Program-made: the position numbers and the translations under genes
Notes under the pieces: model-generated
What the model was told of the DNA's origin: nothing
The model's input: the letters and a program-made list of their open reading frames with translations, nothing else
Databases searched by the model: none
DNA from: a virus
Lineage: Duplodnaviria; Heunggongvirae; Uroviricota; Caudoviricetes
DNA: 40,230 bases
Reading direction: 5' to 3' (one strand)
Virus record (IMG/VR): IMGVR_UViG_2563366875_000002
Location: 1-40,230 of that record
In this document: positions 11,313 through 37,146 of the stretch, in pieces
How the letters are laid out: each line of letters opens with the position of its first letter
Numbering within the stretch: position 1 is the first letter of the stretch

Positions 11313-11681
11313 TTGATGCGTGATATTCAGATGGTTCTGGAGCGTTGGGGGGCATGGGCGGCGAGTGATAGTTCAGGCGTTGATTATTCACCTATAGCCG
11401 CTGGGTTTAAGGGACTTCTTCCCTATACAAGCAAGAAACGCTTGGCTTGTTCGGATAGTGATGCCTTAATTATTGAAGGTTGTCTTGCTCGTCTAAAGCA
11501 AAAAAGGCCGGACGAACATTCGCTTCTTGTTGCCCATTACCTATACGGTATCTCTAAAAGAAAGCTCGCCAAGGCTCGTAAAAAAGATGAGAAATTGATA
11601 CGTATAGAAATACAGCTAGCCGAAGGATTTATTGATGGCTGCCTTTCCATGCTAGATCTAACATTAGATTTGGACGTTTAA
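11313..11681 (+). CDS. late-gene antitermination protein Q
   Basis: 122 aa; MRDIQMVLERWGAWAA...IAAGFKGL...CLARLK matches Q-family N-terminus from memory; position immediately before the late region. Confidence 0.8.
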   Translation: MMRDIQMVLERWGAWAASDSSGVDYSPIAAGFKGLLPYTSKKRLACSDSDALIIEGCLARLKQKRPDEHSLLVAHYLYGISKRKLAKARKKDEKLIRIEIQLAEGFIDGCLSMLDLTLDLDV

Positions 11682-11682
11682 T

Positions 11683-11707
11683 AATACGCCCCTGCATGGG
11701 GCGTATT
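11683..11707. terminator. bidirectional stem-loop between convergent Q and KAP NTPase genes
   Basis: perfect 10 bp inverted repeat AATACGCCCC-TGCAT-GGGGCGTATT with AT-rich flanks. Confidence 0.5.
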
Positions 11708-11709
11708 AT

Positions 11710-13041
11710 TTACTGGATGAATGACATTTGATTAATATATTTTATCAATAACTCTCTGGGTGTAGTACTCCAAAAATTTATGTGTTCATAATCAGTATAA
11801 ACATTTGTGAATTTTTTAAGTTCTTCATCACTTTTAGGGGCAAATCGCTCATTAAGAGTAATACTGTCTTTAATTATTCCGAAGAATACAATGGATATTT
11901 CAGGGATTTGCGATCTTCTCTCATAAGAATAAGGTATTTCTTTTATGTTAAGCAGGTCTGCTAAATAAGATATAGATTCAGCGGTAATTTCTTGTTTTAG
12001 TTTTTCCTTGTTACCAAAGCAATGTATGAAGGCAGCTACGACAAAGATCATATTTATTAAAGGATCACTGCTTTTGTTCTCATCGTCGTTTAACAGTTGA
12101 AAAATGTTAAGATTGCGTGAAAATGTTTGTGTTTCACGTAATGATAAGTTGGTTCGTTGAATTAAATCACGGATAAAGTAACCTGATAATCTATTGATTT
12201 TATTCAATAACCTTGTTTTTTCTACAAGGTAATCCCAATATATAACAGAGGCTTTACATACGTTGTGACCATTTATTAAACATGTATCTGGAAGCGTGAT
12301 GGTATATTTTATAAACTTGTCAAGATACTTTTGTGAGTTAATGCTATAACCATAAATATGATTTATAGATGCTTTTAATTGTTCTGTGTTTGTAACTAAA
12401 ATAAAAAAGACATTATTGATGTCAAAAATGTGTTTTATTGTTTCAATGACATTTGTTGAAAAACTCGGCTTACATCGGTCTAATTCATCAATTATAATTA
12501 CGATTTTTTGATTTTTTGATATGCTTTCGATGCAGGATTTAAGTGAATTTATGTTTTTCTCTGAGTCCATATGGTCTTCAAGCAAATTTTCAATAGTCCC
12601 ATCTATTGCTGCATTGCTTGCTTTCTTCATCGCATCTTGGAATTCTTCGGCAACTTCACTAGCCTCCTGTCGTAAAAACCAACCTGCACCAGCTTTTAGT
12701 ACCGTTTTTAAACCAAAGCGAATTGCAGGAAGAGATCTCTTAATGAAGTGTTGTTTTTCTTCCTCAGGCAAAATGCTGGCAATTGCAGAGGTTATGAGAA
12801 GTAATGGAGATTCTGCATGATCCCCTTTAAAGGCATCAATATAAACAACTTTAGATTCAGTTTCTTGCTCAATAATGAGATTTTTCAGTTTGATACTAAA
12901 TTCTGTTTTCCCTGTTCCCCATGCGCCGTCTATTACCAGTGGTGAAATGTCTGCCTCTGGTTTTAGCAACTTGATGATATTTTCAGCGATGTTTCTTCGT
13001 TGGAACTCGTCACGTTCAGTGAAAGATAGTGTATCTAACAT
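11710..13041 (-). CDS. KAP-family P-loop NTPase
   Basis: 443 aa; Walker A DGAWGTGKT (res 38-46), Walker B-like VIIIDELDRC; strongly AT-rich compared with flanking phage genes. Confidence 0.85.
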   Translation of the reverse strand: MLDTLSFTERDEFQRRNIAENIIKLLKPEADISPLVIDGAWGTGKTEFSIKLKNLIIEQETESKVVYIDAFKGDHAESPLLLITSAIASILPEEEKQHFIKRSLPAIRFGLKTVLKAGAGWFLRQEASEVAEEFQDAMKKASNAAIDGTIENLLEDHMDSEKNINSLKSCIESISKNQKIVIIIDELDRCKPSFSTNVIETIKHIFDINNVFFILVTNTEQLKASINHIYGYSINSQKYLDKFIKYTITLPDTCLINGHNVCKASVIYWDYLVEKTRLLNKINRLSGYFIRDLIQRTNLSLRETQTFSRNLNIFQLLNDDENKSSDPLINMIFVVAAFIHCFGNKEKLKQEITAESISYLADLLNIKEIPYSYERRSQIPEISIVFFGIIKDSITLNERFAPKSDEELKKFTNVYTDYEHINFWSTTPRELLIKYINQMSFIQ

Positions 13042-13311
13042 AATATAAACCTATTAACTCCTACAGTAAAAAACGAATAATACGACTTTGGGATTAAAAA
13101 TCATTAACGCGGTCCGCAAAAATTCTTGTAATCTGTTAAGAGTGGTTACTTCGCCACACAGCTTAAACCCGCCGTCGAGCGGTTTTTTTGTACCTGTAAA
13201 CCAAGAGCAGTACGGTAAACACGCTGGTGGTCGTGAATACTGACTTTTTATCTTGCTGGCTTTTTAGACAAGAGTTATTGGTATGTCATGTTAACCAGAA
13301 GGGAAAAAGAC

Positions 13312-13506
13312 ATGCTAAAACAGCAAGATATGACAGAAACGGCGAAAGTTGTTTTTAATGAATTAAGCATCGAACCGGCAACAGTCGGGGAGATTGCACA
13401 AAACACATACCTTTCACGCGAACGCTGTCAGTTAATACTGACCCAGCTGGTTATGGCGGGGCTGGCAGATTACCAGTTCGGCTGTTACAGACGCCTTCAG
13501 CAATGA
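13312..13506 (+). CDS. small hypothetical protein, possible HTH
   Basis: 64 aa from ATG 13312 with RBS AAGGGA; ATVGEIAQNTYLSRERCQLIL resembles a recognition helix; upstream of the methyltransferase. Confidence 0.4.
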   Translation: MLKQQDMTETAKVVFNELSIEPATVGEIAQNTYLSRERCQLILTQLVMAGLADYQFGCYRRLQQ

Positions 13507-13655
13507 AGGGCTTTTAATTTGTGAAAATGGGCGGCTGGTGGGTGTTGGTAGCACCTGCCAGCCATTCGCTCATGCCTACTGGTCACAAGCGAACCACGGC
13601 CCACTGCTTTAGCGCAAAAGCAGAGTGAGCCTACCAGAGTTACGCTTACTGATCC

Positions 13656-14708
13656 ATGAAAAATACTGTAAAAATAAACAGTGTTGATTTAATCAACGCT
13701 GATTGCCTGCATTTTATTCAGTCCCTGCCTGATGATTCCATTGACCTGATTGTTACCGATCCGCCTTACTTCAAGGTGAAACCCAACGGTTGGGACAATC
13801 AGTGGAAAGGGGACGAAGATTACCTTAAGTGGCTGGACCACTGTCTGGCCCAGTTCTGGCGGGTGTTGAAACCTGCCGGAAGCCTTTACCTGTTCTGTGG
13901 GCATCGCCTGGCATCTGATATTGAGATCATGATGCGTGAACGTTTCAACGTGCTTAACCATATCATCTGGGCGAAGCCGTCCGGACGTTGGAATGGGTGT
14001 AATAAAGAAAGTCTGCGCGCATATTTTCCTGCCACAGAGCGCGTTCTGTTTGCTGAACATTACCAGGGGCCATATCGCGGCAAAAGTGACGGCTATGCGG
14101 CAAAAGAAAGGGAACTCAAACAGCACATAATGGCACCGCTGATATCGTATTTCAGGGATGCTCGTGCCGAACTGGGTATAACGGCAAAACAAATTGCCGA
14201 AGCCACAGGTAAGAAAAATATGGTTTCCCACTGGTTTGGTGCCAGTCAGTGGCAGTTGCCGAATGAGGCTGACTATCGGAAGTTACAGGCACTGTTTTCC
14301 CGTATAGCGGCAGAGAAGTTTCAGGAACAACAACTGGAACAACCACACCACCAGCTGGTGGCATCTTATGATTCACTGAATCGCAAATATTCTGAATTGC
14401 TGGATGAGTTTAAATCTCTCCGGCGCTTTTTCTCCGTATCAGTCTCCGTGCCTTATACCGATGTCTGGACGCATAAGCCCGTTCAGTTCTACCCGGGTAA
14501 ACATCCGTGCGAGAAACCGGCGGATATGCTCCGGCAAATAATCAATGCCAGTAGTCGACCTGGTGATCTGGTTGCTGATTTCTTTATGGGATCCGGTTCC
14601 ACAATAAAAGCAGCAATGGCGCTGGGGCGTCGGGCGTTAGGTGTTGAACTTGAGTCAGAGCGGTTTAATCAGACGGTGAAAGAGGTAAGTGAACTGGTGG
14701 GGAAATAA
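13656..14708 (+). CDS. DNA N6-adenine methyltransferase (orphan, beta-class amino-MTase)
   Basis: 350 aa; motif IV DPPY (LIVTDPPYF) near N-terminus and motif I FFMGSGST near C-terminus; no adjacent restriction endonuclease. Confidence 0.88.
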   Translation: MKNTVKINSVDLINADCLHFIQSLPDDSIDLIVTDPPYFKVKPNGWDNQWKGDEDYLKWLDHCLAQFWRVLKPAGSLYLFCGHRLASDIEIMMRERFNVLNHIIWAKPSGRWNGCNKESLRAYFPATERVLFAEHYQGPYRGKSDGYAAKERELKQHIMAPLISYFRDARAELGITAKQIAEATGKKNMVSHWFGASQWQLPNEADYRKLQALFSRIAAEKFQEQQLEQPHHQLVASYDSLNRKYSELLDEFKSLRRFFSVSVSVPYTDVWTHKPVQFYPGKHPCEKPADMLRQIINASSRPGDLVADFFMGSGSTIKAAMALGRRALGVELESERFNQTVKEVSELVGK

Positions 14709-36741: not shown

Positions 36742-36807
36742 CGTTTATGAAAATGTAGAAATAACGAGCAAATGGCATCATTCCTGCTTTTGTCAGGGAG
36801 ATCTACC

Positions 36808-37146
36808 ATGCTTATTGGCTATGTACGTGTGTCAACAAATGACCAGAACACAGATCTACAACGTAATGCGCTGAACTGTGCAGGATGCGAGCTGATTTTT
36901 GAAGACAAGATAAGCGGTACAAAGTCCGAAAGGCCTGGACTGAAAAAACTGCTCAGGACATTATCGGCAGGTGATACGCTGGTGGTCTGGAAACTGGACC
37001 GACTGGGGCGCAGTATGCGGCATCTTGTCGTGCTGGTGGACGAAGATTTAGAGCATGAGTTAATTAATGGCGGTTTGTCCCACTATTGTGGTTGGTATCC
37101 CCATAGAACAGGGCAAGATATAGTTGTTCATCATGTTCACTCATAA
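36808..37146 (+). pseudogene. serine DNA invertase (Gin/Pin/Hin family), 3'-truncated
   Basis: N-terminal about 95 residues match the Gin family from memory (MLIGYVRVSTNDQNTDLQRNAL...TLVVWKLDRLGRSM); similarity is lost after about nt 37100; ORF ends at 112 aa versus about 190 aa expected; C-terminal DNA-binding domain absent. Confidence 0.8.

Follow-up and report, generated by a model that had tools for sequence, protein, structure and literature searches.

The subject of this analysis is a gene for a KAP-family P-loop nucleoside triphosphatase (NTPase) carried on 40,230 nucleotides of viral DNA (Duplodnaviria; Heunggongvirae; Uroviricota; Caudoviricetes), positions 1 to 40,230 of the IMG/VR record IMGVR_UViG_2563366875_000002; this whole stretch is referred to below as the window. 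The window represents an SfV-like lambdoid Escherichia coli prophage inserted beside proA at a tRNA-Thr gene, and an Rfam scan of its full length returned a single match, a tRNA at 1369-1441, with no match in the KAP region. The KAP open reading frame (ORF) lies at 11710..13041 on the minus strand and encodes 443 amino acids from an ATG start. It converges with the gene for the antiterminator Q (11313..11681, plus strand; 122 amino acids, TTG start, Pfam PF06530 type), from which it is separated by 28 nt, and on its other flank are a small ORF and a DNA methyltransferase gene. The Q gene is annotated as 'antiterminator Q family protein' in near-identical genomes, and PF06530 is recorded on its homologues.

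An earlier, sequence-only reading of the window had singled out this gene as AT-rich and antisense to Q, and both observations hold. The guanine-plus-cytosine (GC) content of the ORF is 32.8%, whereas the 5-kb flanks have 52.6% (left) and 51.4% (right). The complete cassette (11682..13097, minus strand; approximately 1.42 kb, 32.9% GC) begins at the Q stop codon, which forms its left border, and comprises a terminator hairpin, the KAP ORF and a cassette-specific 5' region; it contains only one ORF of at least 60 amino acids. Because a 1.3-kb open frame in 33%-GC DNA is accompanied by a ratio of nonsynonymous to synonymous substitution (dN/dS) of 0.10-0.23 against orthologues, out to the Citrobacter and P2-type homologues, the gene is not a chance ORF. 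It is under purifying selection, and this ratio, which is higher in the C-terminus, therefore indicates that the gene is functional.

The assignment to the KAP family made in that reading is borne out by Pfam KAP_NTPase (PF07693), whose profile, of 293 positions, aligns from position 1 to 292 with residues 15-317 (E 9.4e-71) and scores 238.9 bits where the cut-off is 20. The same reading had left the protein without a named system, but it proves to be a full-length member of a catalogued candidate family, PDC-S20: in the PADLOC model PDLC04956, positions 4-449 out of 450 align with residues 3-442 (E 4.5e-177; 588 bits). Three sister PDC-S20 models also match, and weaker PADLOC matches to the NTPase core were obtained for PifA (6.3e-18) and QatA (7.8e-12). 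In PHROGs, the protein falls into family 8614, which is of the function-unknown class; NCBIfam has no family for it, and a sequence search over all PDB chains returned nothing at E <= 1. Public databases already contain the identical protein on 784 contigs, with unspecific names, 'NTPase' and 'P-loop NTPase fold protein' among them.

Both nucleotide-binding motifs quoted previously are present. Walker A, DGAWGTGKT (residues 38-46; 12904..12930, minus strand), contains GAWGTGKT in agreement with the pattern GxxGxGK[ST], with K45 as the Walker A lysine, and the Walker B region, VIIIDELDRC (residues 181-190; 12472..12501, minus strand), contains IIIDELD in agreement with hhhhDE. Across 55 homologues, G39, W41, G42, T43, G44 and K45 of the former and D185, E186, L187, D188, R189 and C190 of the latter are invariant. 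The two motifs are separated by an insert (residues 101-160; 12562..12741, minus strand) that is non-hydrophobic and well conserved, with column entropies of 0.94-1.26 bits as compared with 2.4-2.9 in the C-terminus; in the AlphaFold model, its predicted local distance difference test (pLDDT) score is below 50 at residues 113-130, 132-134 and 140-157. No 19-residue Kyte-Doolittle window in the protein reaches 1.6 (the maximum is 1.53, at residue 325), and none within the insert does so. Since no transmembrane (TM) segment was found, the protein is placed with the TM-less, PifA-like members of the family and not with Tmn. TM helices are typical of many KAP proteins without being universal, and membership in the family is unaffected.

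The C-terminal 126 residues (318-443; 11713..12090, minus strand) form a lineage-specific helical domain that is hypervariable among homologues. Mean identity to 54 homologues is 23% in this domain and 53-62% in the NTPase part, and for the Salmonella pair dN/dS is 0.43 in the domain as against 0.11. The region is modelled as helices, with pLDDT values of 70-93 over 10-residue blocks. When the domain alone was searched against 1.84 billion representative proteins, five representatives were recovered, including a 446-amino-acid KAP homologue and short proteins, and no fusion emerged that would give a clue to a binding target. A Foldseek search of viral structures (BFVD) was uninformative, its only matches being a single KAP protein from a giant virus and generic proteins of the clamp-loader or AAA type. 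The sequence-only reading had recommended such profile and structure searches as a way of finding a fused effector or sensor; they gave no effector. The C-terminal domain is proposed to be a specificity or sensor domain.

Between the convergent Q and KAP genes is a perfect hairpin (11680..11710) with a 13-bp stem, longer than the 10 bp reported previously, and a 5-nt loop; its sequence is AATAATACGCCCC / tgcat / GGGGCGTATTATT, and it covers part of both stop codons. The folding energies for the two strands are -22.1 and -20.8 kcal/mol (z -5.9 and -6.6), and none of 200 shuffled sequences folded equally well. The hairpin probably acts as an intrinsic terminator in both directions; its U-tracts are imperfect. 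Four aligned variants of this region indicate that each cargo type has its own hairpin directly after Q. The window and strain XH988 share the loop TGCAT (11693-11697), for which strain PapRG-04-4 and Salmonella have the reverse complement, ATGCA; the 13-bp stem is unchanged in all four, and it looks as if the loop alone has been flipped between strains.

The cassette-specific 5' region of the KAP gene (13042..13097, minus strand) is common only to KAP-bearing loci in alignments. It contains what we read as a weak -10-like element, TATTAT, at 13082-13077, and a TAGG 8 nt upstream of the ATG. A minus-strand consensus promoter at 13070..13042 was rejected as a promoter for the KAP gene, as transcription from it would begin inside the ORF, and a plus-strand promoter hit at 13054..13081 was rejected as a shared late promoter, as it sits in cassette-specific DNA that relatives lack.

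Immediately beyond the cassette is a conserved block (13098..13167, plus strand) defined by alignments and by a consensus of 34 sequences. It consists of CGCGGTCCGCAAAAA, a conserved TA dinucleotide approximately 10 nt further on, and TGTTAAGAGTGGTTACTTCG, and it is present in all prophages with the same Q independent of the cargo. From its position and conservation, this block is presumed to be the cognate late promoter and qut site of Q, together with a tR'-like hairpin; a sigma-70 consensus promoter scan called no promoter inside it. The hairpin and the seven Ts that follow it occupy 13168..13189 (plus strand), with a terminator-like hit at 13171-13183, and the homologous hairpin in SfV carries the annotation 'putative rho-independent terminator'. 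It is also a mosaic breakpoint, at which alternative downstream modules are joined. In the window and in MEI008, the hairpin is short of one G (GCGG followed by seven Ts, as opposed to GCGGG and a T-tract in the other aligned relatives), and in the window it folds no better than shuffled sequences (z 0.0), which might allow more read-through into the late genes of this prophage.

With the conserved block on its right-hand side, the KAP gene is situated outside the late operon, between Q and the presumed late promoter, and is thus transcribed towards the Q/early-right transcript and away from the late one. The earlier description of the gene as transcribed against the late operon needs to be revised in this respect, and late transcription running antisense through the KAP gene was rejected on the same grounds.

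The interval between Q and the block is a hotspot for variable cargo. Eighty viral contigs encoding the same Q were compared by measuring the interval from the Q stop codon to the conserved block; one contig ended at the Q stop, leaving 79 scorable loci. In five of these the slot is empty, the block beginning 8-10 bp past the Q stop, while 13 carry the KAP gene (one copy being frameshifted) and 61 carry other cargo. The slot is thus filled in 74 of 79 loci, contrary to the expectation that only a promoter and a terminator would normally be found here, and in 72 of the 74 the cargo is antisense to Q. In every full-length KAP locus of the E. coli type, the distance between Q and the block is 1417 bp. 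When same-Q prophages with other cargo are aligned, homology ends exactly at the Q stop and restarts at approximately 13098, and the Q proteins beside different cargos are 79-93% identical. The closest relative over the whole prophage (97.9% identity over 92% of 25 kb) has an unrelated gene for a 339-amino-acid protein in the slot.

The cargo proteins fall into approximately 24 clusters and occur as one-, two- and three-gene cassettes. Matches were obtained to TIR-TM (E 1.4e-57), a NucC-like PD-DExK nuclease, an HNH/PDC-M68A protein, NYN, PDC-S42, PDC-S49 (a P-loop protein with a KAP-like N-terminus; E 4e-132), an AbiC-like protein and a ClpP-like SDH protease. Several recurrent cassettes lack a defence annotation, for instance a DUF6731 protein (313 amino acids) accompanied by a multi-TM protein of approximately 150 amino acids (18-19 loci), the 339-amino-acid protein (eight loci), and two three-gene sets, one encoding proteins of 140, 89 and 289 amino acids, of which the largest matches PDC-S42, and one encoding proteins of 203, 142 and 379 amino acids.

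These comparisons support the identification of the KAP cassette as acquired prophage cargo, or a moron, and on this point the sequence-only reading is upheld by the empty sites, the alternative cargos, the drop in GC content, the private terminator and the near-isogenic prophages with a different gene. As is characteristic of morons, the cassette is absent from similar phages and deviant in GC content; the terminator is strong, and the sole consensus promoter clashes with the start codon.

Universal presence of the gene at this position in related phages would have spoken against the earlier reading; it is far from universal, since among 5426 complete E. coli genomes the same Q is present in 420 and the KAP gene in 50. 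Downstream of the gene, eight of these 50 genomes have the methyltransferase module of the window and 42 lead straight into the holin, the latter matching the window only to approximately 13187, so that the breakpoint is the T-tract. The view of the gene as a decaying, non-functional remnant tolerated in the slot could draw on disrupted copies: in one of the 13 viral-contig copies (locus L050, IMGVR_UViG_2645727905_000013), the only disrupted one, the protein is split into pieces of 113 and 280 amino acids, and truncated entries labelled 'partial' are found in the databases. The ORF is, however, intact in all 50 E. coli genomes (96.8-99.9% identity), and the dN/dS values and invariant Walker motifs leave this explanation very little probability; the selection analysis all but rules it out. 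The Q-KAP-methyltransferase region most similar to that of the window comes from E. coli CUVET18-1475, in which an IS100 element (IS21 family) is inserted in the early region of the prophage (locus L001, 7536-9337) and the terminase is truncated; this copy of the prophage is considered defective for these two reasons, and its KAP gene is intact.

Homologues are found in prophages in all six of the cases for which the context was sampled, and these contexts are of two kinds. Homologues from Salmonella (92% identity), Citrobacter (65%) and Cronobacter (44%) follow Q, convergent with a PF06530-type Q gene, while those from E. coli (44%), Serratia (45%) and Yersinia (47%) lie in P2/186-like prophages between cI and int, on the same strand as both. 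In phage 186, the position between cI and int belongs to the lysogenic transcription unit, and by analogy this placement is the best available hint that the family is expressed in lysogens. In the Serratia and Yersinia prophages (loci L101-L105), an unannotated, co-oriented ORF of 160-169 amino acids lies between cI and the KAP homologue; neither the P2-type context in E. coli nor the lambdoid contexts contain it, and it could encode a partner protein or be separate cargo.

The two contexts bear directly on whether the protein instead serves its own phage, as an ATPase that tunes Q-dependent late transcription, induction or the timing of lysis. Such a role would suit a gene wedged between Q and its presumed target site, tightly linked to Q and the conserved block in E. 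coli, Salmonella, Citrobacter and Cronobacter and flanked by nearly identical Q alleles, and anti-Q functions are reportedly known in Gifsy-1. Yet the same family occupies the cI-int position in P2/186-like prophages, which have no Q, and same-Q prophages work with an empty slot or unrelated cargo. The linkage is more simply understood as the hitch-hiking of anything inserted between Q and its cognate site, and a phage-serving function is accordingly judged improbable.

The Salmonella homologue is widespread: its 90% cluster has 2139 members, and one member is found on at least 1000 contigs. This retention of a 92%-identical copy in many Salmonella serovars could reflect lysogenic conversion, in which the gene would aid the host apart from phages, for example in stress tolerance or fitness in an animal host. 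On one Salmonella Typhimurium contig (AAYVPS010000009.1, locus L016), the 92%-identical KAP gene and the same Q are located in a decayed prophage, beside genes for an acyltransferase (Acyl_transf_3+SGNH), an LRR+NEL effector and PagL. We take this layout to resemble SPI-12 (Salmonella pathogenicity island 12), with oafA, sspH2 and Q as STM2239, although the locus tags (STM2238/STM2239) could not be confirmed. No feature of the protein itself points to secretion, to the membrane or to metabolism, the other cargos of the slot are mostly of defence type, and a hypervariable C-terminus suits an arms race better than housekeeping, so that a host-fitness function seems unlikely. The SPI-12 gene STM2239 is said to promote fitness (PMC4480994), and the link between the Salmonella KAP gene and SPI-12 could not be confirmed.

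A device for competition between mobile elements, or for addiction, directed at plasmids, satellites or prophage loss, would be compatible with a single gene on a mobile element. The relative PifA is plasmid-borne, and NTPase cores that are approximately 25% identical (residues 11-251) are common on plasmids of Klebsiella and E. coli. The family proper, however, is almost never carried by plasmids (three records at a coverage of at least 80%, with a best identity of 49%), and the cassette, with its one ORF, has no gene for an antitoxin-like partner; we regard this alternative as a poor prospect.

On balance, we consider it probable, with some reserve, that the KAP protein is a single-protein anti-phage ATPase, expressed in the lysogen and resembling PifA. 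The exclusion or abortive-infection role raised by the sequence-only reading finds support of a circumstantial kind, in the membership of PDC-S20, in the defence-type proteins that share the slot and in positions expected to be expressed in lysogens in two unrelated types of prophage. Precedents exist for both the domain and the outcome. In Enterococcus, KAP NTPases with uncharacterised C-terminal regions provide up to six logs of Walker-B-dependent protection (PMC12632615), and PifA, which is TM-less, excludes T7 via membrane depolarisation and nucleotide leakage (reviewed in PMC13001434).

In the mechanism that we infer, the protein would be produced in the lysogen as a standing guard, and its hypervariable C-terminal helical domain would sense a component of the infecting phage. 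Recognition would lead to NTP-dependent oligomerisation of the conserved core, perhaps comparable to that of RdrA, the nearest solved relative, which forms heptameric rings. The infection would then be aborted by a collapse of energy or membrane integrity as reported for PifA, or via a host partner; because no nuclease, TIR or pore domain is present, one of these two is probably the killing step. The antisense orientation and the private terminator of the cassette would shield Q and the lysis genes from constitutive transcription of the cargo.

A number of observations weigh against an anti-phage function. No fused effector domain (nuclease, TIR or pore) is recognisable in the protein, and the Foldseek TM-scores to RdrA (0.37-0.50) are modest and cover the ATPase core only. 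The consensus promoter scan found no convincing promoter for the KAP gene, and at 33% GC the gene could be silenced by H-NS in E. coli. PDC families are guilt-by-association candidates, approximately half of the slot cargo clusters have no annotation, and among sequenced isolated phages there is no close homologue, the best being a Salmonella genome record at 44.6% identity. The literature search uncovered no experimental work on PDC-S20 or the present protein, nor any paper that names or tests the family. Finally, defence by qatABCD was hardly affected when its KAP protein, QatA, was deleted (PMC12424860), and as QatA is largely dispensable, a KAP domain alone is no proof of a defence engine.

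A wider interpretation, which we put forward tentatively as a possibility that falls short of being likely, is that the slot is an undescribed defence hotspot of enterobacterial lambdoid prophages and that PDC-S20 is a minimal KAP immune receptor without a dedicated effector. If this is true, cargo held fast between the antiterminator gene and the site at which the antiterminator acts would hitch-hike with the Q specificity module, and the unannotated cassettes of the slot (such as DUF6731 with a 2-TM protein, the 339-amino-acid protein and the two three-gene sets) would be new defence systems. The 126-residue C-terminus of PDC-S20 would read out phage proteins, and the non-hydrophobic insert between Walker A and Walker B would stand in for the TM hairpin of Tmn-type proteins. 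Rousset 2022, Vassallo 2022, DefensePredictor 2026 and the 2026 domain-centric screen make no reference to KAP proteins. A limited literature search found no description of the Q/late-promoter slot as a hotspot; this aspect, and the view of PDC-S20 as a minimal TM-less KAP protein with a hypervariable read-out domain, may be new. The PDC-S20 family itself is already catalogued, defence by KAP proteins is an established idea and the exact protein is widely deposited.

If the KAP protein does protect lysogens, it would provide an experimental anchor for a catalogued candidate family that roughly 1% of complete E. coli genomes carry and that also occurs in many prophages of Salmonella, Citrobacter, Cronobacter, Serratia and Yersinia. 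Few KAP-type candidates are as small as this soluble protein of 443 amino acids, in which no effector can be recognised, and these properties would make it a tractable model for how KAP/PifA-like NTPases sense phages and arrest infection. The slot between Q and the late promoter would, in addition, be a cheap, position-based source of new candidate defence genes. The practical relevance is modest, and lies in the way that prophage cargo of such a type shapes phage host range on clinical E. coli and Salmonella.

Two further regions of the window are of interest. Directly after the conserved block and before the holin (13288-14708) are a 72-amino-acid ORF without a family match and a gene for a 350-amino-acid N6/N4 DNA methyltransferase (PADLOC MTase_II, E 4.8e-152), with no restriction partner nearby. 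This module is missing from the 42 other KAP-bearing genomes, in which the holin follows directly after the terminator. A second AT-rich island (36772-40230; 33-40% GC) is located at the right end of the prophage, following oppositely oriented tail-fibre and tail-fibre-assembly genes and a serine-recombinase/invertase ORF (36772..37146; 124 amino acids, Resolvase N-terminal domain). Two of its ORFs, 37547..38644 (365 amino acids) and 39589..40230 (which runs off the window), have no Pfam match, the latter having only a weak match to PDC-S50 (E 6e-4). Serine recombinases have been reported as markers of defence genes (2025 preprint, PMC12632615), and this island may be a second cargo or defence locus.

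Among known systems, the closest is PDC-S20 itself, of which the KAP protein is a plain member, with a full-length match, a single-gene architecture and no difference in sequence. PifA, the founding TM-less member of the KAP family and responsible for T7 exclusion by the F plasmid, shares with it the KAP core, the absence of TM helices and the status of a single protein on a mobile element. The homology is not full-length, as KAP residues 7-252 align only with positions 13-255 of the 720-position PifA profile; PifA is plasmid-borne, whereas the KAP protein is prophage-borne, 443 amino acids long and equipped with an unrelated C-terminus, and its relatives on plasmids are approximately 25% identical to it. 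RdrA of the RADAR system has approximately 800 amino acids and works with the deaminase RdrB, for which the KAP cassette has no counterpart, and it shares 12-15% identity with the KAP protein at the TM-scores given above.

EF_KAP from Enterococcus (bioRxiv 2025) resembles the KAP protein in combining a KAP NTPase with a C-terminal region of no known domain, and the authors of that work suggest that an uncharacterised effector, fused to the NTPase, is under its control (PMC12632615). However, EF_KAP has two N-terminal TM helices and a C-terminal region of 322 amino acids, while the KAP protein lacks both TM helices and a tail of such length, and the Enterococcus KAP genes, from a different taxon, were found beside serine recombinases. 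QatA is likewise a P-loop defence NTPase, and its models match the Walker B region (PADLOC 7.8e-12), but the NCBIfam score is 34.4 bits against a cut-off of 600 and no qatB, qatC or qatD is present near the KAP gene. Tmn carries two TM helices within its P-loop domain (PMC13001434); an assignment of the KAP protein to the Tmn/YobI type was rejected, as the insert at residues 101-160 is non-hydrophobic and no Tmn model matches in PADLOC.

The slot, in turn, can be compared with other sites of prophage cargo. The hotspots of P2 and P4 (Rousset et al. 2022) and morons likewise combine a fixed position with many alternative cargos of defence type, and morons share with the KAP cassette a terminator of their own, a deviant GC content and presence/absence polymorphism. 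The stx cargo sits in the late operon, downstream of Q and under pR' (PMC6266700). The Q slot is elsewhere, upstream of the late operon and between Q and the late-promoter block, and it is distinct from the P2 and P4 hotspots.

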